NCBI GenBank assembly: GCA_023249095.1
Contig: JAHFDK010000011.1
Coordinates: 1,165 to 65,164, forward strand
Direction: 5' to 3'
DNA length: 64,000 bases
DNA from: Candidatus Rokuibacteriota bacterium
GTDB lineage: Bacteria; Methylomirabilota; Methylomirabilia; Rokubacteriales; CSP1-6
In this document: positions 26,191-44,303 of the stretch, piece after piece
How the letters are laid out: each line of letters opens with the position of its first letter
How positions within the stretch are numbered: the first letter of the stretch is position 1
Position numbers and translations under genes: made by a program
Notes under the pieces: generated by a model
Seen by the model: the letters and a program-made list of their open reading frames with translations, nothing else
Databases searched by the model: none
Told to the model about the DNA's origin: nothing

Positions 26191-28092
26191 TTGCGAGTTT
26201 CTGGTCTGGGGGTCGAGGTGAGGGAGTGCCATGCGGTTCGCCGGGGCGCCTGGGCGGCTCTGGCGGTGGTGGCGCTCCTTATGATGCTGCCGACGCTTCC
26301 GGCCCTGGCCCAGGACGCGGCCCGGGAGCCCGCGTACCGGGCCTTTCCCCTGATCGGCTCACGGCTCGCCGTGTGGGCGGTCGCCCAGCTCCACCTGAAC
26401 TTCGCGGCGTTCATCCTCGGCGTACCGATCTTCGCCGTGATCATCGAGATCATCGGCTGGCGGACGGGTGACGCCCGGTACGACTGGCTCTCGCACGAGT
26501 TCGTCAAGCTCACCTTCGCGGCGTTCTCGACCACGGCGCTGCTGGGCGCCTTCCTCCTGTTCCTCTTCGTCGGCTACTATCCGAAGTTTTGGACGTATAT
26601 GACCTCGATCTTTTTCCCCACCTACTGGATCTACGCGCTCCTCTTCTTCGCGGAGACCTTCACGGTCTACGTCTGGTACTACGGGTGGGACTGGCTCAGC
26701 GGCCCCCGGAAGGGGATCCACGTCGCCCTCGGCGTCCTCAGCAATCTCTTCGGTACCGCAATACTGTTGGTGGCGAACTCGTGGGTCACCTTCATGATAT
26801 CGCCCGCGGGGATCGACGAGTCGGGCGCCCTGAAGGGATCGGTGTGGGCGGCGATCAACAACTTCACATGGATGCCGATCAACATCCACCGGCTGATCGC
26901 CAACATCGTGTTCGGCGGCACGATCGCGGCGGCCTACGCGGCGTTCCGCTTCCTTGGCGCCAAGACCGACGAGGAGCGCGCCCGCTACGACTGGATGGGC
27001 TACATCGGCAACTTCGTGGCGCTGTCCGCCTTCATCGTCCTGCCGTTCGCGGGCTATTACCTCGGCCGTGAGATCTACGCGTTCAACCAGACCATGGGCA
27101 TCACAATGATGGGCGGCTTCATGTCGTGGCTCTGGATCATCCAGGCGATCCTGATCGGGGTGCTCTTCATCGGCTCGAACTACTACCTCTGGCTCGGCAT
27201 GGAGCGTATCCCCGGCTCGGAGCGGTACCGGCGCTACGTCCCGATGATGATCGGCATCCTCGCCCTCGGCTTCATGGTCTGGGCGACGCCGCGCTCCATG
27301 GTCATCACGCTCGACGAGGCGCGGGCCATGGGCGGCACGCATCATCCGGTGCTCGGCTTCCTGGGTGTCATGTCGGCGAAGAACACCGCGGTGAACATGA
27401 TGATTCTCACCACGTTCGTCTCGTTCGTCCTCTATCGGCGCGCGAACCGGATCTCGATCAAACCGTGGGTCGGGATCGGGATGGTGGTCCAGTGGGCTGC
27501 CCTCGGACTCGCCGCGGCGGTCGTCGTCTTCTACGGCGTGTACGGGTACTTCGTCGAATCGCTGGTGAGAATAGGCTTCTCCGTGTATCAGGTGCTGGCC
27601 GTTCTCGCATCGATCGTCATCGTCATGGCGATCGATATCCCGATGTTCAGGGGCGCCCGCTCCACCGGGACAATTCGCTGGGGGACGATCGCCCCGCGCT
27701 CTCAGTACGTGCTCATCCTCCTGGCGGTGACGTTCACCTGGCTGATGGGTCTGATGGGCTTCGCCCGCTCGGGAATCCGCCAGCACTGGCACGTCTACGG
27801 CGTCATGCGGGATAACTCGGTCGACGCGGTGACGCCCGCGATCGGGTACGCGGCCAACATGATCACCACGGTCACGATCGTGTTCTTCGCCCTGGTGATG
27901 TTCATGTTCTGGCTCGGTGGTCTCAGCGAGAAGGGCAAGGCCGGAGAGTCGGGCCACGCCTCCACGCCGGTCTTTGCGGGCGGGAGCGACGCGGACCCGA
28001 CGGAGTCGGGACGAGGGCGGAGCCGCGCGGGAGGAAGCGAGGCCTCGTCCGCGGGGGAGTCGAGAGGGGGGCGGAGCCCCCTTCTCCCATAG
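26191..28092 (+). CDS. Cytochrome bd-like oxidase subunit I homologue (CydA-like, atypical)
   Basis: AQLHLNFAAFILG and NIHRL His motifs, HEFVKL, many TM helices, C-terminal RSGIRQHWH in place of EYGRQPW. Start uncertain. Confidence 0.8.
   Translation: MRVSGLGVEVRECHAVRRGAWAALAVVALLMMLPTLPALAQDAAREPAYRAFPLIGSRLAVWAVAQLHLNFAAFILGVPIFAVIIEIIGWRTGDARYDWLSHEFVKLTFAAFSTTALLGAFLLFLFVGYYPKFWTYMTSIFFPTYWIYALLFFAETFTVYVWYYGWDWLSGPRKGIHVALGVLSNLFGTAILLVANSWVTFMISPAGIDESGALKGSVWAAINNFTWMPINIHRLIANIVFGGTIAAAYAAFRFLGAKTDEERARYDWMGYIGNFVALSAFIVLPFAGYYLGREIYAFNQTMGITMMGGFMSWLWIIQAILIGVLFIGSNYYLWLGMERIPGSERYRRYVPMMIGILALGFMVWATPRSMVITLDEARAMGGTHHPVLGFLGVMSAKNTAVNMMILTTFVSFVLYRRANRISIKPWVGIGMVVQWAALGLAAAVVVFYGVYGYFVESLVRIGFSVYQVLAVLASIVIVMAIDIPMFRGARSTGTIRWGTIAPRSQYVLILLAVTFTWLMGLMGFARSGIRQHWHVYGVMRDNSVDAVTPAIGYAANMITTVTIVFFALVMFMFWLGGLSEKGKAGESGHASTPVFAGGSDADPTESGRGRSRAGGSEASSAGESRGGRSPLLP
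28052..28087 (+). repeat. REP-like hairpin repeat, copy 1
   Basis: CGGGGGAGTCGAGAGGGGGGCGGAGCCCCCTTCTCC with a 10-bp stem (28062-28071/28077-28086). Matches the copy at 49952 apart from that copy's insertion. Confidence 0.7.
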
Positions 28093-28093
28093 C

Positions 28094-28891
28094 GTGCGTC
28101 CCCCCGTCGGCGTCAAGGTCGGTGCGTTCGCGCTCGCCGTGATGGGCACCTACACGTACTACGCCAACTCGATTCCCCAGATACAGTCGAAGCCGCCGGC
28201 CGAGCTGTCGCTCGAGGGCGGAAACGTCACACCGGCCCAGCTCGTGAAGGCCGGCGAGGAGATCTTCAAGACGAAGGGAACGTGCGAGATCTGCCACCGG
28301 ATCGGCCAGAAGGGCACCCGTGCGCCCGACCTCGCCGGGGTCGGGGGTCGAGCCGGCAAGGTCAAGGCCGGCCTGAGCGGCAAGCAGTACATCATCGAGT
28401 CGCTGCTCCAGCCGGGCGCCTACCTCGTCGAGGGCTACCCGAACATCATGCCCCAGGCCGACAAGCCGCCGATCGCGCTGAACCGCTCCGAGGTCTGGGC
28501 GCTCACGGCGTTCCTCGAGTCCCTCGGCGGCGCCGTCGACGTCACGCTGGACGACATTCCGAAGACGGCGGGCGCCCCCGCGGGCGGCGGGGCGGTGGCC
28601 GAGCTGAAGCTGCCGGGCGACCCGAAGGCCGGCGAGGTGATCTTCACCGGCAAGGGCGCTTGTATCGCCTGCCACAAGGCGGGGAAGATCGGTGCCTCAC
28701 CGGTCGGCCCGGATCTCTCGCAGATCGCGAAGATCCAGACGCCGGACTACGTGATGCGGAAGATCCTGGATCCGGCCGGCGCGGGCACGGTGGCGGGCTT
28801 TCCCAAGGGTGTGATGCCCCCGATGTTCGGCCAGACGCTGACGGCGAAGGAGTTCGTCGATCTCGTGGCCTTCTTGATGACGCTGAAGTGA
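28094..28891 (+). CDS. Membrane-anchored diheme cytochrome c
   Basis: N-terminal TM, CEICH and CIACH, distal Met candidates (NIMP, GVMP). GTG 28094 lies 1 nt after the previous stop. Confidence 0.88.
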   Translation: MRPPVGVKVGAFALAVMGTYTYYANSIPQIQSKPPAELSLEGGNVTPAQLVKAGEEIFKTKGTCEICHRIGQKGTRAPDLAGVGGRAGKVKAGLSGKQYIIESLLQPGAYLVEGYPNIMPQADKPPIALNRSEVWALTAFLESLGGAVDVTLDDIPKTAGAPAGGGAVAELKLPGDPKAGEVIFTGKGACIACHKAGKIGASPVGPDLSQIAKIQTPDYVMRKILDPAGAGTVAGFPKGVMPPMFGQTLTAKEFVDLVAFLMTLK

Positions 28892-28895
28892 GCCG

Positions 28896-29648
28896 ATGAG
28901 CTTCTTGCGGTCGCGCTTCGTCCAGGCCGTCCTCGTGCTGGTCATCGCCTTCGTCGTCCTCCGGTTCGGTATCCAGCCGCCGGCGCCGTGGAGCGTCCTG
29001 ACCCTCTACATGTCGATCGTGCTCCTCGCGGTGCTCGTGTTCGTGTCCTCGGACTCCGATTCGTGGCGCGAGTTCGTGCGGCCGATCCGCGCGACGCTGA
29101 TCAGTCCCGACAAGCGCCGCGCACGGCTCGGGCTTCTGATCGCCCTGCCGCTCCTTTTCGGTTACTACGCCTACACGCAGGCCGCCGCCAAGCCGCAGGC
29201 GCCGCCGGAGTTGCGCGCTGTCCACCCCGCTCCGCCGGCGTCCATGCCGTTCCGCGGCAAGGAGATCCAGATCACGGGGCTGGACAACCCGCTCCGGAAG
29301 GACCAGGCGACCTTCAAGAAGCACGTCGCGGCCGGCGCGGAGATCTACATTCGCAACTGCCTGTACTGCCACGGCGACAACCTCGACGGAAAGGGCCACT
29401 TCGCGTACGGCTTCAACCCGCCGCCCGCGAACTTCCAGGACCCCGGAACGATCGCCATGCTGCAGGAGGCGTACCTCTTCTGGCGCATCGCGAAGGGCGG
29501 GCCCGGGCTTCCGAAAGAGTCGACACCCTGGAACTCGGTCATGCCCGCCTGGGAGGATCGACTGACCGAGGGCCAGATCTGGCAGGTCATCGTGTATCTC
29601 TACGACGCGACGGGGCAGCAGCCGCGGCGATGGGAGGAATCGCATTGA
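28896..29648 (+). CDS. Membrane-bound monoheme cytochrome c
   Basis: Three N-terminal TM segments, CLYCH, SVMPAW. Confidence 0.88.
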   Translation: MSFLRSRFVQAVLVLVIAFVVLRFGIQPPAPWSVLTLYMSIVLLAVLVFVSSDSDSWREFVRPIRATLISPDKRRARLGLLIALPLLFGYYAYTQAAAKPQAPPELRAVHPAPPASMPFRGKEIQITGLDNPLRKDQATFKKHVAAGAEIYIRNCLYCHGDNLDGKGHFAYGFNPPPANFQDPGTIAMLQEAYLFWRIAKGGPGLPKESTPWNSVMPAWEDRLTEGQIWQVIVYLYDATGQQPRRWEESH

Positions 29649-31102
29649 TCCCCTCGCTCACCGTCCTCGCGGCGGCTGGACTCATCGCGCTTTCTCTCAG
29701 CGCGGCACCGTCGCCGGTCGCGGCGCAGGCGGGGGACGCGGCGGCGGGGGAGGCCGTGTACGAGAGGAAGTGCGCGGGCTGTCACGGTGACAAGGGGGAT
29801 GGCAAGGGGCCGGCCGCCGAGCTGCTCGCCCCGAAGCCCCGCGACTTCACCGCGGGCCTCTACAAGGTTCGGACGACGGCGAACAAGGTCCCGACGGACC
29901 AGGATATCTTCCGGATCATCACGGACGGCATGCCCGGAACGTCCATGCCGGCGTGGGCGGTGCTCCCGGAAAAGGACCGGTGGAACCTCGTCGCGTATAT
30001 CAAGGCGTTTGCAGCGGAGAAGTTCAAGGAGGGCCCGAAGAAGCTGGAGCTGCCGAAAGACGTCGCTTCGTCGCCGGAGTCGATCAAGCGCGGCAAAGAG
30101 ATGTTCGAGGCGATCGAGTGCCACAAGTGTCATGGCACCGAGGGACGGGCCGACGGCCCCTCGCGCGCCGAGCTGAAGGACGAGTGGAGCAACCCGATCG
30201 CGCCCGCGAACCTCGCCAAGCCGTGGACCTTCCGCGGGGGCGCGGGCCGGACCGAGATCGCCACCCGGCTCGCCAACGGCGTCCTCGGCACCCCGATGCC
30301 CGCCTTTCTTGACAGTGTCGAGAAGCCCGAGGACATCTGGCACCTGACGAACTTCATTCTTTCGCTCGGCGCCGCGTCGCCGCGCTATGCCACGCTCGTC
30401 ACGGTCACCGCGGTGTCCGACGCGATCCCCGACGACCCGAACGCCGACTACTGGACGAAGGTCGCGCCGGGCAACATCCCGCTGATGGGGCAGGTGATCG
30501 TCGACCCGCGGAACTTCAATCCGGCGATCGATCTCGTGTCGATCCGCGCCGTCTACAACGACAGGGAGATCGCCTTTCACTTGACGTGGGACGACCCGAC
30601 CCAGTCCGCCGACGATCCGGCGAAGAAGCTCTACGCCGACGCGATCTCGCTCCAATTTCCTCCGCAAATCACCTCCGGTCCCGAGCGGCCGTACTTCCTG
30701 ATGGGCGACGGCTCGGACGCCGTCTACCTCCTGCGCTGGGAGAACGGCAAGGGCGTGAGCGAGGCGACGGCGAACGGCCCGACGAAGATCGCCCCCCTCG
30801 CGGGCGCCGAGGCGACGGGCAAGGCCGTGTACACCAACGGCCAGTATCGCGTCGTGATCAAGCGCCCGCTGGGGTCCAAGGACGCGGCGAGCCCGGCATT
30901 CAGTCCCGCGGTCTTCACGCCGGTCGCGTTCCAGGCCTGGGACGGCGGCGCCGGGGAGGCCGGCACGAAGATGTCGTTGACCTCATGGTACTATTTGCGG
31001 CTGGAGGAGCCGCAGTCGAACCGACGTTTCGTCATTCCTCCGGTCGTCGCAATCCTCACACTGGCGGTGATGCTGCTCGTGGTGCGAGTTGCGAACAGGT
31101 GA
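29645..31102 (+). CDS. Diheme cytochrome c fused to an ethylbenzene-dehydrogenase gamma-like (EB_dh/DOMON) heme domain, C-terminal TM anchor
   Basis: TTG start overlaps the previous TGA. CAGCH, CHKCH, KPRDFT, then HLTWDDPT, DAISLQFP, PYFLMGDG, AFQAWDG...KMSLTSW. Confidence 0.85.
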   Translation: MIPSLTVLAAAGLIALSLSAAPSPVAAQAGDAAAGEAVYERKCAGCHGDKGDGKGPAAELLAPKPRDFTAGLYKVRTTANKVPTDQDIFRIITDGMPGTSMPAWAVLPEKDRWNLVAYIKAFAAEKFKEGPKKLELPKDVASSPESIKRGKEMFEAIECHKCHGTEGRADGPSRAELKDEWSNPIAPANLAKPWTFRGGAGRTEIATRLANGVLGTPMPAFLDSVEKPEDIWHLTNFILSLGAASPRYATLVTVTAVSDAIPDDPNADYWTKVAPGNIPLMGQVIVDPRNFNPAIDLVSIRAVYNDREIAFHLTWDDPTQSADDPAKKLYADAISLQFPPQITSGPERPYFLMGDGSDAVYLLRWENGKGVSEATANGPTKIAPLAGAEATGKAVYTNGQYRVVIKRPLGSKDAASPAFSPAVFTPVAFQAWDGGAGEAGTKMSLTSWYYLRLEEPQSNRRFVIPPVVAILTLAVMLLVVRVANR

Positions 31103-31133: not shown

Positions 31134-31832
31134 ATGCGTAAGGTAATCGGAGCGCTTCTGGCGATCGCGCTCGTCGTGGGCGTCGCCGCCGTCGCCCACC
31201 GCCCGGGGCCGGCCGGGGCGCAGGGAGGCGGGACCATCGAGGCCGCGGTGACGTACGCCGGCGCGGCGGTGGTCGAGAAGCTCAAGGTGAACAAGGACAC
31301 GGAGAAGTGCGGGACCGAGGCGCTGATCGAGAAGGTCGTGGTGGGCACCAACAAGGGGCTGGCGAACGCCGTCGTCTCCGTCCCGGGCGCCAAGGGCGCG
31401 CCGAAGGCGGTGAAGGCGACCGTCGACCAGCACGGCTGCAAGTTCGTCCCCCGCGTGGTCGCGATGACGCCGGGCGAGGTCGAGCTCAAGAACTCCGACG
31501 ACATCCTGCACAACATCCATACGTACTCGACGGCGAATCCGTCCATCAACAAGGCGCAGCCGAAGTTCAAGAAGGTGATGACCGAGAAGTTCGAGAAGCC
31601 CGAGATCATCAAGCTCACCTGCGACGTGCACAGCTGGATGCTCGGGTGGGTCGCCGTCATGCCGAACCCGTTCTTCGGCGTCACCGACGCGAATGGCGTG
31701 ACCAAGATCGAGAACGTGCCGCCCGGCAAGTACAACGTCGAGGTGTGGCACGAGACGCTCGGCAAGCAGACGAAAGAGGTCGAGATCAAGGCCGGGCAGA
31801 CGGCGAAAGTCGCGATCGAGATGAAAAAGTAA
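31134..31832 (+). CDS. Secreted carboxypeptidase-regulatory-like/cupredoxin-like protein 1
   Basis: Signal peptide, LHNIH, CDVHSWM, NVPPGKYNVEVWHE. Confidence 0.75.
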   Translation: MRKVIGALLAIALVVGVAAVAHRPGPAGAQGGGTIEAAVTYAGAAVVEKLKVNKDTEKCGTEALIEKVVVGTNKGLANAVVSVPGAKGAPKAVKATVDQHGCKFVPRVVAMTPGEVELKNSDDILHNIHTYSTANPSINKAQPKFKKVMTEKFEKPEIIKLTCDVHSWMLGWVAVMPNPFFGVTDANGVTKIENVPPGKYNVEVWHETLGKQTKEVEIKAGQTAKVAIEMKK

Positions 31833-31853: not shown

Positions 31854-32606
31854 ATGCTTGACTGGTGGCTGCCGGAAAACGTTTCGACTTACGGCCAGGA
31901 GATCGACTGGCTCTTCCACCTCATCTACTACATCACCGGCGCGACCTTCATCCTGGTCTTTGTCACGATGCTGGTATTCCTCGTGATGTACCGGGATCGC
32001 CCCGGCCGGCGGGCTCGCTACACCCATGGCAACACAACGCTCGAGATCGTCTGGACGGTGGTGCCGGCGCTGATCCTGGTCATCCTCACGATCCTCAGCG
32101 TCCCCGCGTGGTCGAAGATCAAGATGACCATGCCGGAGACGGACTTCGTCGTGCAGGTGACGGCCAAGCAGTTCAACTGGCAGGTGACCTACCCGGGCCC
32201 CGACGGCCAGTTCGGTACGGCCGACGACAAGACGCTCTTGGACGAGATGCACGTCCCGGTCAACAAGGTCGTCCGGGTCATCCTGAAATCCCAGGACGTC
32301 ATTCACAGCTTCTTCGTCCCCCAGTTCCGGATGAAGCAGGACGCGGTCCCCGGCCGTGAGATCCGGCAATGGTTCGAGGTGGTCAAGCCCGGCAGATACG
32401 AGTGGCCGTGCGCGGAGCTGTGCGGCTTCGGACACTCGGGAATGCGGGGGTGGATCTATGTCCACACCCCCGACGAGTACGGGAAGTGGGCGGCGCAAAA
32501 CCTGACGGCGGAGGCTGCGCCGGCCGCCGCCGAGCCGAAGCCGGAGGGCACGAAGGCCGAGACGACCAAGGCCGAGCCTAAGAAAGAGGGGAAAGCCAAG
32601 AAATGA
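31854..32606 (+). CDS. ctaC: Cytochrome c oxidase subunit II
   Basis: Two TM helices, DVIHSF and CAELCGFGHSGM CuA ligands. No fused cytochrome c. Confidence 0.96.
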   Translation: MLDWWLPENVSTYGQEIDWLFHLIYYITGATFILVFVTMLVFLVMYRDRPGRRARYTHGNTTLEIVWTVVPALILVILTILSVPAWSKIKMTMPETDFVVQVTAKQFNWQVTYPGPDGQFGTADDKTLLDEMHVPVNKVVRVILKSQDVIHSFFVPQFRMKQDAVPGREIRQWFEVVKPGRYEWPCAELCGFGHSGMRGWIYVHTPDEYGKWAAQNLTAEAAPAAAEPKPEGTKAETTKAEPKKEGKAKK

Positions 32607-34357
32607 GCGCCACCAGCGCGACCGCGCACGCGCACGTCGAGCACGGCGGCCACCACGAGCTCGGCTTCGTGCGGACCTACATCTTCTCCACGGACCACAA
32701 GATGATCGCCCGGCAGTTCCTGTTCCTGGGGCTCTTCATGATGATCCTCGGCGGGCTGCTCGCGCTCGTCGTCCGCTGGCAGCTCGCCTGGCCCGAGACG
32801 GCCGTGCCCGGCCTCGGCGGCATCCTCACGGAGACGGGCGGCATCCTGGAGCCCAGCACCTACAACATGGCGTTCACGATGCACGCCACGATCATGATCT
32901 TCTTCGTGATCATGCCGATCCTCGCGGGCTGCTTCGGGAATTTCTGCATCCCGCTGATGATCGGGGCGCGCGACATGGCGTTTCCGTTTCTGAACATGCT
33001 TTCATTCTGGGTGACGGGCAGCGCGGGCCTCATCATGCTCTCCGGCTTCTTCGTGGAGGGCGGCCACGCCGCCGCCGGCTGGACCTCCTACGCCCCGCTC
33101 TCGGCGGTTCCGGCGTACACGGGCGTGAACTGGGGCCAGAACATCTGGTGCATCAGCCTGTTCATCATGGGCGTCGGCTCGATGATGGGATCGATCAACT
33201 ACATCACGACGATCATCAACATGCGGGCGCCGGGCATGCAGCTCTTTCGGATGCCGCTCGTGGTGTGGTCGCTCTTCATCACGGCGATCCTGCTCCTCCT
33301 GGCCCTGCCGGTGCTCACGTCGGGCGTCGCCATGCTGCTGTTCGACCGCACGCTCGGCACGAGCTGGTTCAGGCCCTCGGGTGGCGGCGAGCCGCTCCTG
33401 TGGCAGCACCTCTTCTGGTACTTCGGCCACCCGGAGGTGTACATCCTGATCCTCCCGGCGATGGGCATCGCCTCCGAGATCCTGCCGGTCTTCTGCCGCA
33501 AGCCGATCTTCGGCTACCACGCGATGGCGTTCTCGATGATCGCGATCGCGTTCCTGTCCTGGATCGTCTACGGCCACCACATGTTCGTCAGCGGCATGAG
33601 CCCGGCCCTCGGAATGGCCTTCACGGTCACGACGATGGTCATCGCGGTGCCCTCGGCCATCAAGACGTTCAACTGGCTGGGCACCCTGTGGGGCGCCCGG
33701 ATCCAGTTCACCGTCCCGATGCTGAATGCGCTCGCGTTCGTCTCGATGTTCGTCATCGGCGGGCTCTCGGGGATCTTCATGGCCTCGACCCCGGTGGACA
33801 TCTACATCCAGGACACGTACTTCATCGTGGCGCACATCCACTACGTCGTCTTCGGCGGCTCGATCTTCGGCGCGTTCGCCGCGATCTACTACTGGTTCCC
33901 GAAGATGTTCGGCCGGATGACGAACACGGTCCTCGGCCACCTGCACTTCTGGCCGACGTTCGTGTTCTTCAACCTGACCTTCTTCCCGATGCACATCATC
34001 GGGGTCGGCGGCCAGATGCGCCGTATCTACAACCCGATGCAGTACGAGTTCCTCCAGCACCAGCAGCCCTGGAACGTGTTCATCACCGTGAGCGCGCTCG
34101 CGCTCGGCATCTCCCAGATCCCGTTCGTCGTCAACTTCTTCTGGTCGCTGTTCGCCGGCACGAGGGCGCCGCTGAACCCATGGAACGCCACCACGCTCGA
34201 GTGGACGGCGCCATCACCGCCCCCGCACCTGAACTGGGGCCCGACGCTGCCGACGGTGTATCGAGGCCCCTACGAGTACAGCTCGCCGGAGTCGAAGGAA
34301 GACTTCTTGCCGCAATCCACGCCCCCGGTGGGGGCCGCCGGAGCGCGGCGGCACTGA
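32603..34357 (+). CDS. ctaD: Cytochrome c oxidase subunit I, type A1
   Basis: TMHAT, WYFGHPEVY (A1 Glu), GHHMF, AHIHYV, D-channel ARDMAFP, K-channel SAIKTF. Confidence 0.97.
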   Translation: MSATSATAHAHVEHGGHHELGFVRTYIFSTDHKMIARQFLFLGLFMMILGGLLALVVRWQLAWPETAVPGLGGILTETGGILEPSTYNMAFTMHATIMIFFVIMPILAGCFGNFCIPLMIGARDMAFPFLNMLSFWVTGSAGLIMLSGFFVEGGHAAAGWTSYAPLSAVPAYTGVNWGQNIWCISLFIMGVGSMMGSINYITTIINMRAPGMQLFRMPLVVWSLFITAILLLLALPVLTSGVAMLLFDRTLGTSWFRPSGGGEPLLWQHLFWYFGHPEVYILILPAMGIASEILPVFCRKPIFGYHAMAFSMIAIAFLSWIVYGHHMFVSGMSPALGMAFTVTTMVIAVPSAIKTFNWLGTLWGARIQFTVPMLNALAFVSMFVIGGLSGIFMASTPVDIYIQDTYFIVAHIHYVVFGGSIFGAFAAIYYWFPKMFGRMTNTVLGHLHFWPTFVFFNLTFFPMHIIGVGGQMRRIYNPMQYEFLQHQQPWNVFITVSALALGISQIPFVVNFFWSLFAGTRAPLNPWNATTLEWTAPSPPPHLNWGPTLPTVYRGPYEYSSPESKEDFLPQSTPPVGAAGARRH

Positions 34358-36338: not shown

Positions 36339-36433
36339 CGAGCGACGCGCGGAACCGGCAGACGCTGCGGGTGCTCCTGACGATCATCGGGGCGCTGGTC
36401 GTCTCGGCGTTCCTCATCGGGATCCGCTGGTGA
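36335..36433 (+). CDS. 32-aa single-TM small protein
   Basis: MTSDARNRQTLRVLLTIIGALVVSAFLIGIRW*, coupled by ATGA and GTGA overlaps on both sides. Confidence 0.7.
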   Translation: MTSDARNRQTLRVLLTIIGALVVSAFLIGIRW

Positions 36434-37361: not shown

Positions 37362-37975
37362 GTCAGGTAGCCTCAATGCATGGGGCGGTGGAACCGGCCG
37401 AGTCGCCGCTCACCCCCGAAAGCTGGGGGAAGCTCGGCATGTGGATCTTCCTGGCGGGCGACGCCGTCGGCTTCGGCACGCTCCTCGCCGGCTACGGCGC
37501 GATGCGGGCTACCAGCGCCGACTGGCCCTCGCCATACGAAGTCCTCGGCATCAACCTGACGGCCGCGATGACCTTTCTGCTCATCTGCTCGAGCGTGACG
37601 ATGGTGAAGGCGCTGGAGTGGCTGGGGAAGGGGGACAAGACCAGAGCGAACAGGTTCCTCTTCTTCACCGCGCTCGGTGGCGCGATCTTCGTCAGCCTGC
37701 AGGCATACGAGTGGACGCACCTGATCCACCGGGGGCTCCACATCAACGGCAACCCGTGGGGCGCCTCGCTCTTCGGCACGTCCTTCTTCCTCGTGACGGG
37801 CTTTCACGGCCTGCACGTGACCGGCGGCGTCATCTACCTGCTCTCGATCATGAGGGTCGTCGCCCGGCGCCCCTCGCCCGCGGCGAGCTACAACGCCGTC
37901 GAGATCACCGGGCTCTACTGGCACTTCGTCGACCTCGTCTGGATCATGGTGTTCACCTTCATGTACCTCCTGTAG
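37358..37975 (+). CDS. ctaE: Cytochrome c oxidase subunit III family protein (second copy)
   Basis: GKLGMWIFLAGD, TFLLICSSVTM, TGFHGLHV, LYWHFVDLVW. Confidence 0.92.
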   Translation: MSQVASMHGAVEPAESPLTPESWGKLGMWIFLAGDAVGFGTLLAGYGAMRATSADWPSPYEVLGINLTAAMTFLLICSSVTMVKALEWLGKGDKTRANRFLFFTALGGAIFVSLQAYEWTHLIHRGLHINGNPWGASLFGTSFFLVTGFHGLHVTGGVIYLLSIMRVVARRPSPAASYNAVEITGLYWHFVDLVWIMVFTFMYLL

Positions 37976-37987: not shown

Positions 37988-38317
37988 ATGGCGACCGCAG
38001 AGCACAAGCATCCGAACTACATGGCGATCTTCTGGTACCTGGCGATCCTTACCGTGATCGAGATTGCGGTGATTTACATGCCGCTGGCGAAATTCACGAT
38101 CGGCGTGCTGTTGTGCGCGCTCGCCCTGGGCAAGGCGGTGCTGGTCGCGATGTACTTCATGCACCTCCGGTTCGAGACGCGCACCCTGGGCATGGTCGCC
38201 ATCACTCCCCTCGTGATCGCCACGCTGCTGGTCTTCGTGCTGCTGCCCGACGGGTTCGCGGTCATGAAACGGACGACCGGCGCCAAGGCGGCCGCGACCG
38301 AGCCCGCGAAGCGCTGA
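37988..38317 (+). CDS. Cytochrome c oxidase subunit IV family protein
   Basis: YMAIFWYLAILTVIE, KAVLVAMYFMHL. Confidence 0.88.
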   Translation: MATAEHKHPNYMAIFWYLAILTVIEIAVIYMPLAKFTIGVLLCALALGKAVLVAMYFMHLRFETRTLGMVAITPLVIATLLVFVLLPDGFAVMKRTTGAKAAATEPAKR

Positions 38318-38348: not shown

Positions 38349-38717
38349 ATGGAGTCGCAACGACTGGCCGACCGGATCGCGAAATCCCTGGGCCGGGCGG
38401 TACGCCTCCGTTGTCCCCGTTGCGGGACGACGGCGCTCTTCCGGGGCTGGTTCTCGATGGCCGAGGCGTGCGCCCTCTGCGGCCTCCGGTTCGAGCGAGC
38501 GCAGGGCTACTTCGTCGGGGCGATCTACATCAACTACGCGGTGACCGCGATCCTCGCGATCGGCGGCTTCTTCCTCCTCTGGGGCCTGACGGCCCTCTCC
38601 ACGGCGGCGCAACTCGCGCTGCTGGTGCCGGTCGTGATCCTGTTCCCGCTGTGGTTCTTCCGGTACAGCCGGAGTTTCTGGCTCGCCCTCGAGTGGCTGA
38701 TCAACCCCGAACCCTGA
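38349..38717 (+). CDS. DUF983-like membrane protein with two CxxC motifs
   Basis: RCPRCG...LFRGW...CALCGLRFER.GYFVGAIY. Confidence 0.75.
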   Translation: MESQRLADRIAKSLGRAVRLRCPRCGTTALFRGWFSMAEACALCGLRFERAQGYFVGAIYINYAVTAILAIGGFFLLWGLTALSTAAQLALLVPVVILFPLWFFRYSRSFWLALEWLINPEP

Positions 38718-38728
38718 GGCGCCCGCGC

Positions 38729-39472
38729 GTGACCGCGGGCGTGTTTCTCTCCGTGCTCGTGCTTGTCGCACCGGCCGGCGCCTACGAGGCGGTCGCGGTG
38801 AAGGACGGCGGCACCCTCACGGGGATCGTCCGGTTCGCCGGGACCCCGCCGACCCTGAGTCCGATTCCCGTGAACAAGAACCGAGATGTCTGTGGTGACC
38901 AGAAGGCATCCGAGGCCCTTGTGGTCGGCCCGGACCGGGGGGTGCGAGACACCGTGGTGATGATCGAAGGCGTCACCCGCGGCAAGAAGGGCACGGGCGA
39001 CGTCATCGTCGACAATCGGCACTGCGTCTTCGTCGGTCACGTGACGGCTGTGGTACCCGGCGACCGGGTGCGCGTCCGCAACTCGGACCCGATTCTCCAC
39101 AACACGCATGGGTTCCTCGGCCAGCCGACCGTCTTCAACCTGGCATTACCGAACAAGGACCAGATGATCGACATCACGAAGCGTCTCCAGAAGCCTGGCG
39201 TGGTGCGCGTGCTGTGCGACGCACACCCGCACATGTTCGCGTGGATGATCGTCCACGACAGCCCGTACGTGACGGTGACTGACGCGTCGGGCGCCTTCCG
39301 CATCGGCGACGTCCCGCCGGGCACCTACAAGGTCACGATGTGGCACGCCGGCTTCCGGCCCAAGGGCGCCGACAAGGACGGCCGGCCCGTCTACGACGAG
39401 CCGCGGACCATGACGAAAGAGCTGACGATCGCGCCGAAAGCGACGGCGACGGTCGAGTACGAGTTGCGCTGA
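38729..39472 (+). CDS. Secreted carboxypeptidase-regulatory-like/cupredoxin-like protein 2
   Basis: Paralogue of 31134-31832: LHNTH, CDAHPHM, DVPPGTYKVTMWH. Confidence 0.75.
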   Translation: MTAGVFLSVLVLVAPAGAYEAVAVKDGGTLTGIVRFAGTPPTLSPIPVNKNRDVCGDQKASEALVVGPDRGVRDTVVMIEGVTRGKKGTGDVIVDNRHCVFVGHVTAVVPGDRVRVRNSDPILHNTHGFLGQPTVFNLALPNKDQMIDITKRLQKPGVVRVLCDAHPHMFAWMIVHDSPYVTVTDASGAFRIGDVPPGTYKVTMWHAGFRPKGADKDGRPVYDEPRTMTKELTIAPKATATVEYELR

Positions 39473-39497: not shown

Positions 39498-41405
39498 ATG
39501 TTCAAGCACATCTGCGTTCCGGTGGACAACTCGGATCATTCGAACCGCGCGATCGACCTGGCGGTCGAGTTGGGCCGGACGTGCGGCACGAAGCTCACGG
39601 GCATCCACGTCTACGCCGCGCGCCTCCACGACTACCGGTTCAAGCAGATGGAGTACACGCTCCCCGAGGAGTACAAGGACGAGAACGAGCTCGAGCGCCA
39701 GCGGAAGATCCACGACTCGCTGATCGCGATGGGGCTGCAGCTCATCTCCGAGTCGTACCTCGATGTGATGGCGCGCAAGGCGGTGGAGGCCGGGCTCGCC
39801 TTCGAGCCCAAGATGATCGACGGCAAGCATTACAAAGTCCTCGTCGAGGACTGCCTCGCCGCCGACTACGACCTCGTGGTCATGGGCGCCCTCGGCATGG
39901 GCGCGGTGAAGGACAGCCAGCTCGGCTCCGTCACCGAGCGGTTCGTCCGCCGCGTGACACGCGACACGCTGATCGTGCGCAACACCGACCCGTTGCTAGA
40001 TAAGCAGGGCGCGATCGTCGTCTGCCTCGACGGCTCGCCACAGTCCTTCAACGGCCTCAAGCTCGGCATCGAGCTCGCGACGGCCCTCCGCCGGCCGCTC
40101 CAGGCCATCGCCGTCTACGACCCGTACCTTCACTACGCGATGTTCAACGGCATCGTCGGCGTGTTGACTGAAAAAGCATCCAAAATCTTTCGATTCAAGG
40201 AACAAGAGCAACTGCACGAGGAGATCATCGATACCGGGTTGGCCAAGATCTACCAGTCGCATCTGGAGATCGGCCGCAAGCTCGCCGCCGAGGCGGGGGT
40301 CGAGCTCGCCATCACGCTCCTCGACGGCAAGTGCTTCGAGAAGATCCTGACGTTCGTTCGCAAGGAGCAGCCGTGGCTCCTCATCCTGGGGCGGGTCGGC
40401 GTACACTCGGAGGAGAACGAGGTCGACCTCGGCTCTAACACCGAGAACATTCTGCGGCTGGCCCCGTGCAACGTGCTGCTCACGGGCGGCAAGTTCTATC
40501 CGCCGCTCGACGTCAAGGCCGAGGAGATCATCTCCTGGACGGAGGAAGCGGAGGCGCGGATGGAGCGGGTGCCGCCCCAGGTGAAGGGCGTCGCGCGCAC
40601 GGCGCTCCTGCGCTATGCGATCGAGCAAGGCCATACCGTCGTCACCAACAAGGTCATCGACGAGGCGATGGCCATCTTCATGCCGACGCGCATGGCCGAG
40701 CGGATGCAGATCCTCGCCGAGGACGTCGCGATCGCGCAGCTCCGTGCTGAGACGCAACCGGCCACGGCGATTTGCTCCGTCTGCGGCTACACGGTCAAGG
40801 GGCCCAACCCCGTCGTCGCGTGCCCGGTGTGCAAGGCCACCGCCGACAAGTTCCAGGTCATCTCGAAGGAGGCGATCGAGGCGATCGCCACCCAGGAGGG
40901 CGGGATCGAGGCGGAGGAGTCGCTGCCCGGCGTCCAGGTGAAATGGTCCGCCGAGGCGCGCGACGCGCTACGCGAGGTGACCGACGCCTACCTCCGACGC
41001 CGCGCCAAGGCGCGAGTGGAGAAGTACGCGCGCTCGCGGAAGATCCCTGTCATCACCTGCCAGCTCGCCCTGCCGATGATCGAGGAGACCGTCGGGCGGG
41101 AGAAGCTCGGGGCGGGCTGGGACACCCTGCTCGCGAGGACGAAGTTCGAACCGGCCGATCTCCCCGGTGCCTCGACGAGGGGTGACAGCGCCGGCTTCGG
41201 GTGGACCGAGGAGGCGACGGCGCGGCTCAACCGCGTTCCCGCCGGATTCATGCGCGACATGACGCGCGAGGAAGTAGAGCGTGTGGCGGCCGCCAAGGGT
41301 GTGACCACCATCGATCTCGCGGTGTGCGAAGAGGGCATCGGGCACGCGCGCGAGACCATGAACGAAGTGATCGCTGGGTACGTCTCGAACAAGAAACCGC
41401 GATAA
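39498..41405 (+). CDS. Universal stress protein (two USP domains) fused to a rubredoxin-like motif and three PCP_red-like helical domains
   Basis: HICVPVDNS, DLVVMGALG...LGSVTERFV; second USP IVVCLDGS, LGSNTENIL; CSVCG..CPVC; three W(T/S)xEA..RL..VP repeats. Confidence 0.85.
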   Translation: MFKHICVPVDNSDHSNRAIDLAVELGRTCGTKLTGIHVYAARLHDYRFKQMEYTLPEEYKDENELERQRKIHDSLIAMGLQLISESYLDVMARKAVEAGLAFEPKMIDGKHYKVLVEDCLAADYDLVVMGALGMGAVKDSQLGSVTERFVRRVTRDTLIVRNTDPLLDKQGAIVVCLDGSPQSFNGLKLGIELATALRRPLQAIAVYDPYLHYAMFNGIVGVLTEKASKIFRFKEQEQLHEEIIDTGLAKIYQSHLEIGRKLAAEAGVELAITLLDGKCFEKILTFVRKEQPWLLILGRVGVHSEENEVDLGSNTENILRLAPCNVLLTGGKFYPPLDVKAEEIISWTEEAEARMERVPPQVKGVARTALLRYAIEQGHTVVTNKVIDEAMAIFMPTRMAERMQILAEDVAIAQLRAETQPATAICSVCGYTVKGPNPVVACPVCKATADKFQVISKEAIEAIATQEGGIEAEESLPGVQVKWSAEARDALREVTDAYLRRRAKARVEKYARSRKIPVITCQLALPMIEETVGREKLGAGWDTLLARTKFEPADLPGASTRGDSAGFGWTEEATARLNRVPAGFMRDMTREEVERVAAAKGVTTIDLAVCEEGIGHARETMNEVIAGYVSNKKPR

Positions 41406-41552
41406 GCAGGGGCGAGGGGTGGGGATGGGGGTGCCTCCCGGGATCCGACTGCTGACTTCTGGGTCCGGCTAACTCTCGTGCTTCGCGCGCGTGCGACCCT
41501 GACTACACGGATCCCGGGAGGCACCCCCATCCCCATCCCCTCGCCCCTGCTT
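41404..41552. repeat. 44/45-bp inverted repeat around a 60-nt spacer (MITE-like or long RNA hairpin)
   Basis: Arms 41404-41447 and 41508-41552 are reverse complements apart from a single 1-nt bulge. Confidence 0.9.
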
Positions 41553-41554
41553 CC

Positions 41555-43021
41555 ATGGATCCCGACCGGCATGCCCGCGCCTCCATCCTGGGGTCTCTCG
41601 TCGTGACGGACTCGCCCTCCGGTCACGAGGCGGCTCCGGCGTCCGCGGGGTCGACGGCGGCGCCGCCGTATACCGCGTACAGCGTGTCGTGGAACCTGAC
41701 GCAGCGGTGCAATCTCGAGTGCTCCCACTGTTACATGTCGGCGTTCGCGGGCGCCGACACGCGAGGCGAGCTGTCCACCGACGAGTGCCGGCGCGTGATG
41801 GACGAGATAGCCCTCGTCAACCCGAACGTCTTCCTGATCCTGACCGGCGGTGAGCCGCTGCTCCGCAAGGATATCTGGGACATCGCCGCCTACGCTTCCG
41901 AGAAGCGGTTCACGACGGTGCTCGGCACGAACGGCGTGCTCCTGCGCGAGCGCGAAGCGAAGCTCATGCGGACGCACGGCGTCCTCGGTGCTTCGATCAG
42001 CCTCGACTCCACCGACCACGCCCGGCACGACGCGTTCCGCCGCCTGCCGGGCGCCTGGGAGGCCGCGGTGCGGGCCACCCGTGTGCTGTCTGACGCCGGC
42101 CTCGATTTCTCTCTCCACATGTCGGTGACCGACTGGAACGTGGGCGAGGTTCCCGCGATGATCGACTTGGCGAAGGAGCTCGGCGCGAAGGTGCTGAACT
42201 TCTTCTTCCTCGTGCGGACCGGTCGTGGGACGAACCTGACGGACGTCGATCCCGCGACCTACGAGCGTATCCTGACCTACCTCGCCCAGGTCCAGGGTGT
42301 CGGCGGCGGTCCTCCTTCCTTCGTGAAGGCGCTATTCGGAATGGGCGAGCGGCGCGGCCCTCAGACGTTCGAAGACCCGTGGTCCACCCCGGTGGGCCGC
42401 GCCGACGGGCTGCTCATTCGCGCGAAGTGCGCCCCGCACTTCCGGCGCATCCTCTACGGGATGAATCCGTCCTCTCCGCTCCTCCGGAACTACGCTCACG
42501 GCTCGTGCCCGGCCGGCAAGTACTACTGTCGCATCACTCCCGAGGGCGACGTCACGCCGTGCCCCTACATGCCGGTCGCGGCGGGCAGCCTGCGCGAGCG
42601 ATCCTTCGCCGACGTGTGGCGGACCGCGCCGGTGTTCGCCGACCTGCGCGACCCGAAGCTCGGCGGGCGCTGCGGCGCTTGCGAGTTCGCGAGAATCTGC
42701 GGCGGGTGCCGGTGCCGTGCCTACGCGACGTACGGCGACTACCTCGCGGAAGATCCCGCGTGCGCCTACCAGCCGGGCGCGCACGGCGGCCAGCTCATCG
42801 ACGTGCCGGCGTCGCTGACGTTCGGGCTTCCGGTCGACTACGAGCTCGCCTGGGACGAGGAGGCGCGCGCGCGGCTTCAGGCGATCCCTTCGTTCGCGCG
42901 CGGCATGGTGATCAAGGCCGTCGAGGCCTACGCGCGGGGTCGGGGCGAGACGACCATTACGAAAGAACTCCTCGCCGACGTCCGCTCGAAGTGGGGCTCC
43001 CGCTTCCGGCCCCGATCCTGA
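41555..43021 (+). CDS. Radical SAM/SPASM enzyme (NirJ/AhbC/AhbD-like) with a C-terminal PCP_red-like domain
   Basis: WNLTQRCNLECSHC, LTGGEP, SPASM CPAG...PCPY...CGACEFARICGGCRCRAY. Start may be GTG 41603. Confidence 0.88.
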   Translation: MDPDRHARASILGSLVVTDSPSGHEAAPASAGSTAAPPYTAYSVSWNLTQRCNLECSHCYMSAFAGADTRGELSTDECRRVMDEIALVNPNVFLILTGGEPLLRKDIWDIAAYASEKRFTTVLGTNGVLLREREAKLMRTHGVLGASISLDSTDHARHDAFRRLPGAWEAAVRATRVLSDAGLDFSLHMSVTDWNVGEVPAMIDLAKELGAKVLNFFFLVRTGRGTNLTDVDPATYERILTYLAQVQGVGGGPPSFVKALFGMGERRGPQTFEDPWSTPVGRADGLLIRAKCAPHFRRILYGMNPSSPLLRNYAHGSCPAGKYYCRITPEGDVTPCPYMPVAAGSLRERSFADVWRTAPVFADLRDPKLGGRCGACEFARICGGCRCRAYATYGDYLAEDPACAYQPGAHGGQLIDVPASLTFGLPVDYELAWDEEARARLQAIPSFARGMVIKAVEAYARGRGETTITKELLADVRSKWGSRFRPRS

Positions 43022-43446
43022 TGGATCCTTTTCGGCTGGCCGCGCACGCATACCGGATCTACGGAGTGATCTATTGGATCGGTGGCTTCTATCTCGCGAT
43101 GCATGGGGTCGGCATCCGCGGCGGACGCATGATGCAGTCGGGCCTGGTGTGGATCGTCCTGGGTTTCGCCTTCCTGGTGGTGATCCCGTATCTCCTCGCG
43201 CAGCGCCGAACGTGGTTCGAGCGCTGGATTCTCTCCCGCCGCGACTTCGCGCGGATTCTCACCGCGTTCATGGCTTTGCGGGCCTGGCACGTTTTGAGGG
43301 TCGCGCTTCGCCCAGAGACCGCCAGCGTGTCCACACCCTGGGGCGGCGAGATGACCTTCCGGGCCGGCGGAATCGTGTTCCTGGTCGTCACCGTGGCCGC
43401 GCTTGTCCTGGTAGGTCGGGCGGCCTGGACGAAGGAAGCTGCGTGA
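43021..43446 (+). CDS. Hypothetical membrane protein (about 4 TM)
   Basis: ATG overlaps the radical SAM stop. Hydrophobic helices and normal codon usage. Confidence 0.75.
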   Translation: MDPFRLAAHAYRIYGVIYWIGGFYLAMHGVGIRGGRMMQSGLVWIVLGFAFLVVIPYLLAQRRTWFERWILSRRDFARILTAFMALRAWHVLRVALRPETASVSTPWGGEMTFRAGGIVFLVVTVAALVLVGRAAWTKEAA

Positions 43447-44303
43447 AACGCTACAAGGACATTGCGGGCGACGGCGGCTCGAACATCGCGGGTCAGGTCG
43501 AGGCTCAGCAGGGCAGGCTCCGACAGCGGCTTGCGTCGGTGCGGACGATTGTCGCCGTCGTTTCCGGCAAGGGCGGCGTCGGGAAGTCGGCCCTTACCGC
43601 GAACCTCGCGTGCTGCTTCGCGCTCGACGGCTGGAAGGTCGGTGTCCTCGACGCGGATCTCAACGGCCCGACGCAGGCCAAGCTTCTGGGCGTGCGCGGC
43701 CGGCGACTCGTCATGGCCGACGGGGGCGTCGAGCCGCCGCGGACCGAGCTGGGTGTGAAGGTGATGTCGATGGACCTGCTCCTGGCCGGCGATGCCGCGG
43801 CGCTCACCTGGGACGCGACGGTCAAGGACGAGGCGCACACCTGGCAGGGGGCCATGGAGGCCAACGCGATCCGCGAGTTCCTGGCGGATACGAACTGGGG
43901 CCCGCTGGACGCGCTCCTCCTCGACTTACCGCCCGGCACCGACCGCCTCGCGACGATCGCGTCGCTGGCGCCGACGCTCGCCGGGATCGTCGTGGTGACG
44001 ATCCCGTCCGAAGTGTCGCACCTCGTCGTGCGGAGAGCGATCACCGCGGCCTCTCACACGAAGGCGCCGGTGCTTGGGCTCGTCGAGAACATGGCCGGCC
44101 TGTTTCCCGGGCCGGACGCCTCCCGGTTCGCTGCCGACGCCGGGATCCCCTTTCTCGGAAGCGTGCCGTTCGACTCGGCGCTCTCCATCGCCGCCGATCG
44201 GGGCGAGGCGTTCGTGGCCAAGGCGCCGTGGCGCGAGTCGGTCCGGGCCCTCAAGCGGATCGCCGACGGGATTCGCGCCGCACTGCCGCCCCGCCGGGCG
44301 TGA
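43443..44303 (+). CDS. Mrp/NBP35 (ApbC-like) P-loop ATPase lacking the C-terminal CxxC
   Basis: SGKGGVGKS, DADLNGP, DLPPGTD, then ENMAGLFPG with no CPxC. Confidence 0.88.
   Translation: MKRYKDIAGDGGSNIAGQVEAQQGRLRQRLASVRTIVAVVSGKGGVGKSALTANLACCFALDGWKVGVLDADLNGPTQAKLLGVRGRRLVMADGGVEPPRTELGVKVMSMDLLLAGDAAALTWDATVKDEAHTWQGAMEANAIREFLADTNWGPLDALLLDLPPGTDRLATIASLAPTLAGIVVVTIPSEVSHLVVRRAITAASHTKAPVLGLVENMAGLFPGPDASRFAADAGIPFLGSVPFDSALSIAADRGEAFVAKAPWRESVRALKRIADGIRAALPPRRA

Follow-up and report, generated by a model that had tools for sequence, protein, structure and literature searches.

The terminal oxidases of Nitrospira, of Nitrospina-type and of manganese-oxidising bacteria are presumed to be membrane proteins of the OR-N family in the cytochrome bd superfamily, often called bd-like; what these proteins do has been a question since 2010, and none has been purified. 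Here we describe such a protein in a 64,000-nucleotide stretch of a contig from a soil Candidatus Rokuibacteriota genome (JAHFDK010000011.1; "the window" denotes this whole stretch, and positions are counted from its first letter), where a 20-gene respiratory cluster (g01 to g20, 26191-44303) places a bd-like module collinear with an aa3 cytochrome c oxidase and flanks it with a pair of blue copper proteins and a radical SAM gene set of the tetrapyrrole type. Neither this context nor the companion set (g05/g16 and g17-g20) was found described in the searchable literature, and the organisms concerned, the Rokubacteria, are widespread in soil metagenomes. A sequence-only reading of the locus had proposed an unrecognised quinol-oxidising or electron-input module, a third kind of complex III, in supercomplex with the oxidase and with dedicated maturases encoded at the operon end.

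The closest described system is the OR-N2 subfamily (Murali, Gennis & Hemp 2021), which corresponds to TO_1 of Manganitrophus and to bd-like_2 of Nitrospira, a "putative terminal oxidase" accompanied by alt_NxrC_1 and a pair of cytochromes c (Lucker 2010; Mundinger 2019). OR-N proteins are described as being without a quinol site, subfamilies N1 and N2 having 14 helices (Murali et al.). In the OR-N2 signature (Murali et al., Supplementary Table 6), H19, H126 and H186 are kept, E99 is replaced by Tyr, E107 is kept, M430/N434 occupy the M393 region, E445 is replaced by Ser and W441 is kept. The replacement of the Q-loop had already been noted for the bd-like family by Lucker et al. 2013, in whose account the nitrite oxidoreductase (NXR) clusters of Nitrospina, Kuenenia and Nitrospira hold a bd-like oxidase, mono- and dihaem cytochromes c, alt-NxrC, two cupredoxin-like proteins and a zinc-finger protein.

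A respiratory island of three modules

All 20 open reading frames (ORFs) of the cluster lie on the + strand, with high G+C at the third codon position (GC3) and coding-like GC1 and GC2, in a window of 67% G+C. As the sequence-only reading had described, they are co-oriented and either overlap or lie close together (-19 to +31 bp), the sole exception being the 149-bp spacing between g17 and g18 that is taken up by a repeat at 41404. The cluster is bounded by opposite-strand genes on both sides, ftsH (24127-26031, -, divergent) and a hypothetical gene (44326-45042, -, convergent). Two start codons were revised, most likely to GTG 28094 for g02 and to GTG 34375 for g08. Domains were called by Pfam and NCBIfam, and the calls made from the sequence alone proved essentially right, the cupredoxin-like nature of g05 and g16 being supported by a profile match to amicyanin.

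Signatures of cydB, Rieske, cytochrome b, Sco and Cox11 were looked for in the cluster and about 30 larger flanking ORFs, and none was detected, smaller ORFs lying outside the Pfam scan. The cluster carries no Pfam domains of bc1/b6f or alternative complex III (ACIII), and there is no NxrAB-like or other molybdoenzyme gene in it or among the scanned ORFs of the 64-kb window. When Nitrospira proteins were used as tblastn queries, neither Rieske nor cytochrome b gave a match in the window or in about 160 Rokubacteria and NC10 loci (of L001-L244 in our collection of related loci, which are cited below by L numbers), within 10 kb on either side of the cluster.

Taken together, the cluster is a composite respiratory island of three evolutionary modules: a bd-like module (g01-g04), an aa3 oxidase with its haem A synthesis genes (g06-g15), and a companion set made up of the cupredoxin-like g05/g16 and the genes g17-g20. 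This arrangement is not a chance one, as it is conserved across related loci.

Genes g01-g04 encode a bd-like module of the OR-N2 type

The first module comprises the following genes.

26191-28092, + strand: g01, CydA-like membrane protein belonging to the OR-N2 subfamily (cytochrome bd superfamily; PF01654, 57 bits)
28094-28891, + strand: g02, membrane-anchored dihaem cytochrome c (two CxxCH; PF00034/PF13442, twice)
28896-29648, + strand: g03, monohaem cytochrome c with N-terminal transmembrane helices (one CxxCH; Pfam)
29630-31102, + strand: g04, dihaem cytochrome c that continues into an EbdC/NxrC-like haem b domain and ends in a transmembrane anchor, "alt-NxrC"-like (two CxxCH; PF09459 EB_dh)

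The CxxCH motifs thus number exactly five, spread over three membrane-anchored periplasmic cytochromes, and g04 also matches TIGR03477 DMSO_red_II_gam with 106 bits, which is under the family cut-off. For g01, an N-terminal signal/anchor helix and 13 transmembrane helices are predicted, followed by a low-complexity C-terminal tail; its AlphaFold2 model (predicted local distance difference test (pLDDT) 84, predicted TM-score (pTM) 0.82) has 14 long helices. All ten top Foldseek matches in the PDB are CydA chains (probability 1.0), and the comparison with ActC gives noise level (E = 0.027, TM-score 0.23). Residues H68, H177, H233, Y148, E155, M394/N398, S527 and W533 fit the OR-N2 signature, with Y148 sitting at the E99 position. 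These signature residues are kept in 26-33 of 34 diverse family members (N398 in 21 of 34), among which H385, K397 and H534 are likewise nearly invariant. The Q-loop is absent: in the model, helices 260-298, 312-339 and 347-364 stand between the helices that carry H233 and M394. The quinol oxidation proposed from the sequence alone found no support in the sequence: the canonical site is missing, with three transmembrane helices in the place of the Q-loop, and no other sign of such an activity was seen.

Like OR-N2, bd-like_2 and TO_1, g01 is a CydA-only protein of 14 helices that has no Q-loop and carries the same residue signature, and the gene order of the module (bd-like, two cytochromes c in succession, then a cytochrome c joined to an EbdC-like domain) is that of OR-N2/bd-like_2, the four products being 49%, 35%, 40% and 25% identical to their Nitrospira counterparts. 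Because the CydA fold, the residue signature, the 14 helices and the operon content all match the published OR-N2, TO_1 and bd-like_2, the sequences of g01-g04 identify them as an OR-N2 "cytochrome bd-like oxidase" module, which was already catalogued and named, so that "unrecognised" was not the right word for it.

Other placements within the superfamily were considered and rejected. Compared with the structures of canonical CydAB from E. coli, Geobacillus and Mycobacterium, g01 shares the subunit I fold and the equivalents of H19, H186, M393, H126 and E107, but differs in having five extra helices, c-type cytochrome partners, no CydB, no Q-loop, and Tyr and Ser in place of E99 and E445. No CydB partner is encoded in the cluster or its scanned flanks, which leaves g01 without the features that define canonical cytochrome bd (qOR), namely CydB, the Q-loop and E99, and a canonical CydA with a distant CydB was ruled out on the missing Q-loop and E99. 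Membership in the OR-C family was ruled out as g01 has no CxxCH motif, and OR-N1 as it carries Glu and not Gly at the E107 position and has no adjacent pet genes.

Database entries for g01 orthologues are mostly named "cytochrome bd ubiquinol oxidase subunit I". With the Q-loop and CydB missing, this name is probably a systematic misannotation; if the ordinary reading of the module is true, the name is almost certainly wrong and its correction a useful one. At 85-96% identity, the closest relatives of g01 come without exception from Candidatus Rokubacteria/Rokuibacteriota (Methylomirabilota). Among the GTDB species representatives, a pattern scan picked out 566 species-level genomes that encode a close relative, and a profile-free search returned 1,107 clusters (50% identity) at E <= 0.001, of which 235 at E <= 1e-30.

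Two kinds of gene fusion were observed in this module. Two distant lineages (L245:117-2786, at 41% G+C, and L246:671-3025) have the homologues of g01 and g02 in a single ORF, and in NC10 (L075:12611-14848 and L076:12545-14728) those of g03 and g04 are joined in frame. These fusions argue that the subunits of the bd-like module form one complex. In addition, low-complexity tails end both g01 (27960-28092, Gly/Ser/Arg-rich; pLDDT < 50) and CtaC (32480-32606, Ala/Pro/Lys/Glu-rich), and are absent or variable in relatives.

Conservation of the cluster and the company kept by the bd-like module

In Rokubacteria the whole order is conserved, beginning with g01-g05, passing the oxidase genes and closing with g16-g20. 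Close linkage between the bd-like/cytochrome c genes and an A1 oxidase, which had been seen in the window alone, proved to be real and is kept in dozens of Rokubacteria genomes at the species level: CtaD lies downstream of g01-g05 in 43 of the 47 Methylomirabilota loci that extend 7 kb or more past g01 (two of them via split matches, in long-read assemblies), and upstream of g17 it is found in 46 of 49 loci with at least 8 kb of sequence, g04 being present in 45 of these. Within the module, g02-g04 follow g01 in 61/61 Methylomirabilota loci that have enough downstream sequence, and g18 and g20 follow g17 in 58/59. Cluster order and tight spacing are kept down to about 75% identity in g17 and about 70% in g01. 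Nearly all loci with the full arrangement are of the Rokubacteria type; one bears the label Tectomicrobia and a close relative the label Binatia, both possibly owing to binning.

One Rokubacteria locus (L041:1-9669) carries, besides the downstream oxidase, a second, divergent haem-copper oxidase on the opposite strand (CtaD 45% identical); just upstream of its g01 there are also paralogues of g20, g17 and g18, which are divergent (36-48% identical).

Outside this group the two halves come apart. In Methylomirabilis/NC10-type loci (L054, L075, L076, L078), g17-g18-(g19)-g20 precede g01-g02-g03/g04 and no haem-copper oxidase is nearby. In L246, whose g01 is 53% identical, the bd-like/cytochrome c fusion is directly followed by a full-length g17 homologue (42% identical). 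L247 holds a g05/g16-like gene, then orthologues of g01-g04, then more cytochromes c, and no haem-copper oxidase. The converse case is offered by CSP1-6-type Rokubacteria (L224, L225 and L230, around 3900-9990), in which a g16-g20 unit stands without any haem-copper oxidase. The sequence-only reading counted unlinked halves in relatives among the evidence against itself; they are unlinked in the NC10-type loci, in Nitrospira and in L247.

Because these loci present the companions or the bd-like module without a haem-copper oxidase, the cupredoxins and g17-g20 are associated with the bd-like module rather than with aa3. As the sequence-only reading had it, accessory, maturase-like genes (g17-g20) stand at the operon end; the company they keep across lineages is that of the bd-like module rather than of the oxidase. 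The aa3 genes g06-g15 are found between two cupredoxin paralogues only in Rokubacteria-type loci, a gene order which suggests that the oxidase genes were inserted between the cupredoxin paralogues of an older bd-like gene set.

Nitrospira offers another setting again. Its nearest homologue of g01, P0126, is 49% identical, and homologues of g02-g04 follow the g01 homologue in 63/67 loci. Within 10 kb on either side, no homologue of g17, g19 or g20 and none of g05-g08 or g10-g16 was detected in these loci, g18 giving weak generic radical SAM matches only; in tblastn they yielded 73 Rieske and 71 cytochrome b matches. Thus, unlike Nitrospira bd-like_2, most Rokubacteria modules are collinear with an A1 aa3 oxidase and not placed beside Rieske/cytochrome b, and they are accompanied by cupredoxin, USP-PCP_red (USP, universal stress protein), radical SAM and Mrp genes, which were not found within 10 kb in Nitrospira. 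In most Nitrospira loci (L082-L164), a second bd-like gene, a cytochrome c, Rieske, cytochrome b and a conserved 334-residue hypothetical protein are encoded directly upstream of the g01-g04 orthologues. The distant homologues P0150, P0162 and P0145 have short or uninformative contexts.

Further neighbours were noted in individual loci. In the NC10 genome CSP1-5 (L076:575-4431), genes for a pyrroloquinoline quinone (PQQ)-dependent XoxF/MxaF-like dehydrogenase, a solute-binding protein and two small cytochromes c stand directly upstream of g17-g20 and the bd-like module, and another small cytochrome c follows the module. This gene order suggests a chain from alcohol dehydrogenase through cytochrome c to the bd-like oxidase in NC10. 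In L075, a molybdopterin-binding protein is encoded downstream of the bd-like module. The g16-g20 unit of L224, L225 and L230 is preceded by genes for a cupredoxin, a tetrahaem cytochrome c, a histidine kinase and a sigma-54-dependent response regulator, which hints at sigma-54 control of the companion module in these loci.

The bd-like module has therefore been seen beside Rieske/cytochrome b in Nitrospira, beside a PQQ dehydrogenase in NC10 and beside aa3 in Rokubacteria, and the comparative pattern nominates g17-g20 and g05/g16 as candidate accessory genes of the bd-like oxidase. The value of the cluster lies in these nominated genes and in a new comparative context for a 15-year-old question: it is a new context for a known enigmatic enzyme, and not evidence for a new kind of complex III.

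Possible roles of the bd-like module

The reading that we favour, and which we would call an even call, takes the bd-like module for a cytochrome c/cupredoxin-fed oxidase branch that is co-located with aa3 in the three-module island. The anchored c-type cytochromes and the cupredoxins would be reduced by upstream dehydrogenases or by a quinol oxidase encoded elsewhere, and the reduced periplasmic carriers would then feed two parallel terminal branches. Electrons would enter the aa3 branch through CuA. In the bd-like branch they would pass from the c haems to the EbdC-type haem b, on to a b558-type haem (predicted ligands H233 and M394) and finally to the high-spin haem, where O2 would be reduced at a site formed by H68 with E155, H177, H385 and H534 nearby. 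The bd-like branch would probably be co-regulated with the aa3 oxidase, and g17-g20 would mature or supply its tetrapyrrole and Fe-S cofactors.

O2 reduction is the function that has been proposed for Nitrospira bd-like_2, the protein 49% identical to g01; as the Nitrospira genomes are reported to have no canonical haem-copper oxidase, the bd-like protein is presumed to be their O2 reductase. An oxidase is also supported by the near invariance of H68, E155 and H177 together with the loss of the quinol loop, and by the position of the module: in Nitrospira it follows a bc complex, and in NC10 it comes after a PQQ dehydrogenase and cytochromes c.

Several points weigh against this interpretation. 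No OR-N-type protein has been characterised biochemically, and for bd-like_2 the reduction of O2 has been deduced from genomes and transcriptomes. The replacement of E99 by Tyr and of E445 by Ser makes the g01 active site differ from those of proven bd oxidases. Two terminal oxidases in one tight, possibly co-transcribed cluster would be unusual, and a module that feeds aa3 would be more natural; as CtaC has no fused cytochrome c, the upstream anchored cytochromes and g05 could be its dedicated donors. Promoter and terminator counts were no higher than in shuffled sequence and are uninformative on co-transcription of the cluster. For organotrophic use of aa3 this interpretation requires bc1 or ACIII in Rokubacteria, and no statement on a Rokubacteria complex III was found in the searchable literature. 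The role assigned to g17-g20, finally, derives from family membership and synteny only, g18 lying under the AhbD and NirJ2 cut-offs.

The foremost alternative, which we nevertheless consider unlikely, is that g01-g04 form a quinol:cytochrome c/cupredoxin oxidoreductase, that is, a third kind of complex III with a non-canonical quinol site, in which five c haems, haem b and g05 would lead to the CuA of aa3, possibly in a supercomplex. The order module, cupredoxin, CtaC/CtaD with gaps of at most 31 bp, conserved across Rokubacteria, speaks for it, as do a CtaC without a cytochrome c domain of its own and the lack of Rieske/cytochrome b matches in the window and the roughly 160 Rokubacteria/NC10 loci. 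The arrangement also parallels that of ACIII-caa3 clusters. ACIII-caa3/aa3 gene clusters and the supercomplex are known from Flavobacterium johnsoniae and Rhodothermus marinus. In common with them, the Rokubacteria cluster has a multihaem c "wire" and a polytopic membrane subunit directly upstream of an A-type oxidase; unlike ACIII, it has no ActB (Fe-S), no ActC/ActF (NrfD-like) and no identifiable quinol site.

The idea itself was not new, since the possibility of an alternative complex III role had been raised in print for the bd-like family in 2013 (Lucker et al.). What tells against it is that the canonical Q-loop and quinol residues are absent and a novel quinol site would be needed, and that H68, the predicted ligand of the high-spin haem, and the channel residues E155 and H177 are nearly invariant, though needless for a protein that only transfers electrons. 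Moreover, the orthologous module adjoins a genuine Rieske/cytochrome b complex in Nitrospira, the genus reported to be without a canonical haem-copper oxidase; in the Methylomirabilis/NC10-type loci it is unlinked to any haem-copper oxidase, and Candidatus Methylomirabilis oxyfera (NC10) has, according to the literature, cytochrome b and Rieske proteins.

Ranking below this, and rather doubtful to us, is a hybrid form in which the Rokubacteria module would be the electron-input half of a bd-like-aa3 supercomplex, acting as a quinol- or periplasmic-donor:cupredoxin/cytochrome c oxidoreductase that replaces bc1/ACIII and receives its cofactors from a dedicated AhbD-like radical SAM/PCP_red/Mrp system.

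It is less probable again that the module serves as a membrane docking or electron-entry station for a periplasmic enzyme of the type II dimethyl sulfoxide (DMSO) reductase family (NXR-like) or another dehydrogenase, which would dock on the EbdC/NxrC-like domain of g04 and send electrons to the oxidases or, by reverse electron transport, uphill to the quinone pool. The EB_dh/DMSO_red_II gamma domain on g04 fits such a role, proposals of this kind have been published for alt_NxrC and bd-like clusters of Nitrospira, Nitrospina and anammox bacteria, and Rokubacteria single-cell genomes are reported to encode nitrite oxidoreductases. The PQQ dehydrogenase beside the module in CSP1-5 and the molybdopterin-binding protein downstream of it in L075 point the same way. 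As in the NXR clusters, bd-like, mono- and dihaem c and NxrC-like haem b proteins come together here with two cupredoxin-like proteins and proteins with a CxxC zinc-ribbon-like motif; unlike them, the Rokubacteria cluster is without NxrA, NxrB and TorD-like genes and has a haem-copper oxidase at its centre instead. The lack of molybdoenzyme genes in the cluster and the scanned ORFs counts against a docking station, there is no evidence for a quinone site, and the conserved oxidase-type haem-ligand and channel residues would be left unexplained.

Least probable of all is a mere accretion of two independent oxidases and a haem/Fe-S maturation set that share regulation without direct coupling, g18 being a general O2-independent coprohaem decarboxylase (AhbD): all three modules do occur separately in other lineages, AhbD and NirJ2 are the best matches of g18, and dispersed palindromic elements at intercistronic junctions suggest tolerated breakpoints, but the very tight spacing and strict order persist down to the identities given above (about 75% in g17, about 70% in g01), g17-like and g05/g16-like genes recur specifically beside bd-like genes in unrelated arrangements (L246, L247), and g18 carries the unusual PCP_red domain that is also found in g17.

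Cupredoxins and companion genes

We thus retain the parallel bd-like and aa3 branches as the working interpretation, in which the companion genes would belong to the former. They are as follows.

31134-31832, + strand: g05, exported/anchored type 1 copper protein, amicyanin-like, that ends in a CarboxypepD_reg (Ig-like) domain (H126, C163, H166 and M169 conserved)
38729-39472, + strand: g16, amicyanin-like cupredoxin with CarboxypepD_reg, paralogue of g05 (34% identical; family profile)
39498-41405, + strand: g17, cytoplasmic fusion of two USP domains, a rubredoxin-like zinc ribbon and three PCP_red domains (Pfam)
41555-43021, + strand: g18, radical SAM/SPASM protein of the tetrapyrrole-modifying AhbD/NirJ2 group, ending in a PCP_red domain (PF04055, PF13186, PF08369)
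43021-43446, + strand: g19, small membrane protein (no family match; follows g18 in Rokubacteria and NC10 loci)
43443-44303, + strand: g20, Mrp/ApbC/NUBPL-type Fe-S cluster carrier ATPase (PF10609, 200 bits)

On g05 and g16, Pfam detects the C-terminal CarboxypepD_reg domain only and no cupredoxin domain, a single-sequence PDB search with g05 gave spurious repeat-protein matches only, and the AlphaFold2 model of g05, built on a shallow alignment, has a pLDDT of 38. A profile of 29 sequences of the g05/g16 family matches full-length amicyanin (E = 0.0016) with the His/Cys/His/Met ligands aligned, which justifies the term "cupredoxin-like", and the ligand pattern His...Cys-x2-His-x2-Met is invariant or nearly so in these 29 sequences. 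Profile-profile comparison with the Pfam-positive cupredoxin of L225 was weak (probability 19%). Many g05 orthologues carry the Joint Genome Institute (JGI) name "plastocyanin". The two proteins are accordingly predicted from their family profile to be amicyanin-like type 1 copper proteins.

The best families for g18 are TIGR04545 (AhbD haem b synthase, 301 bits) and TIGR04055 (NirJ2, 298 bits), both under the equivalog cut-offs of 500 bits, so g18 appears to be a relative, not a demonstrated orthologue, of AhbD/NirJ2. It shares with them the radical SAM core, in which the CxxxCxxC motif reads CNLECSHC, and the SPASM auxiliary-cluster domain, and is set apart by the extra C-terminal PCP_red domain and by its place in an oxidase cluster. 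PCP_red, unusual on such a protein, is common to g18 and g17, which has three copies. Against the MrpORP model g20 scored 193 bits, under the cut-off. From family membership and synteny, the most likely role of g17-g20 would be tetrapyrrole/Fe-S cofactor maturation or supply for the bd-like branch; no paper linking PCP_red, AhbD-like enzymes and bd-like oxidases was found in the searchable literature.

The aa3 oxidase genes

The central module consists of ten genes.

31854-32606, + strand: g06, CtaC, subunit II, which has a CuA site but no cytochrome c fused to it (PF00116, PF02790; CuA motif CAELCGFGHSGM)
32603-34357, + strand: g07, CtaD, subunit I of an A1-type haem-copper oxidase (PF00115, 507 bits; GHPEV motif)
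34375-35415, + strand: g08, CtaA, haem A synthase (PF02628)
35412-36338, + strand: g09, CtaB, haem O synthase (PF01040, 177 bits)
36335-36433, + strand: g10, single-transmembrane peptide of 32 residues (no family match; ORF kept in many related loci)
36430-37098, + strand: g11, subunit III-like, first copy (PF00510)
37095-37361, + strand: g12, exported/membrane protein of 88 residues with a CxxC motif (no family match; position conserved in relatives)
37358-37975, + strand: g13, subunit III-like, second copy (PF00510)
37988-38317, + strand: g14, prokaryotic oxidase subunit IV (PF03626, COX4_pro)
38349-38717, + strand: g15, DUF983 membrane protein with two N-terminal CxxC pairs, zinc-ribbon-like by inspection (PF06170)

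CtaD matches Paracoccus denitrificans aa3 subunit I with 442 bits, and the GHPEV motif with its helix VI glutamate marks type A1. By these sequence criteria, g06-g15 encode a canonical, proton-pumping A1 aa3 cytochrome c oxidase together with haem A synthesis genes. The 3' end of ctaA consists of a 54-bp tandem repeat (35232-35408, 2.9 copies, 74% matches) which encodes a His/Pro/Ser-rich tail (HAASVSGHPRS...) that reaches the ctaB start.

A palindromic element between g17 and g18

The only wide spacing of the cluster is occupied by one further feature.

41404-41552, no strand assigned: palindromic element, its stem about 44 bp long and its loop about 60 nt (fold -122 kcal/mol, z = -12)

Hairpins of 30-47 bp are present at the same g17-g18 junction in at least 26 related Rokubacteria loci, and an alignment of 14 of them shows compensatory changes at 31/39 pairs as well as the conserved loop-edge motifs GGRATCCGACTGC and CTGACTACRCGGAT. 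The element as a whole measures about 150 nt, its GC-rich stem ranging from 35 to 48 bp among the copies. Rfam gave no match anywhere in the window. A collection scan for the hairpin core used a loose pattern, and the matches listed are mostly chance ones, with at least two further genuine copies among them. Copies elsewhere are found at the g03-g04 junction of AR23 (L002:13455-13600) and in unrelated loci of two other Rokubacteria metagenome-assembled genomes (L257:2210-2390 and L287:3495-3680). As copies also occur at g03-g04 and in unrelated loci, the hairpin is not an operon-specific riboswitch; it is a member of a dispersed Rokubacteria palindromic family, similar to repetitive extragenic palindromes or miniature inverted-repeat transposable elements (REP/MITE-like), that lands at intercistronic junctions. 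Between g17 and g18 it may act as an mRNA 3'-end stabiliser or a partial terminator.

Surroundings of the cluster

The flanks of the cluster hold transporters, proteostasis genes and housekeeping enzymes. The ftsH gene beside the cluster belongs to a proteostasis cluster (18792-26031, -) encoding ClpB, a DnaJ-like protein, an HtrA/DegP-like protease and FtsH, which is divergent from the respiratory genes. The 159-bp intergenic region between the two (26032-26190), shared with the ftsH side, is the only obvious promoter location for the respiratory cluster.

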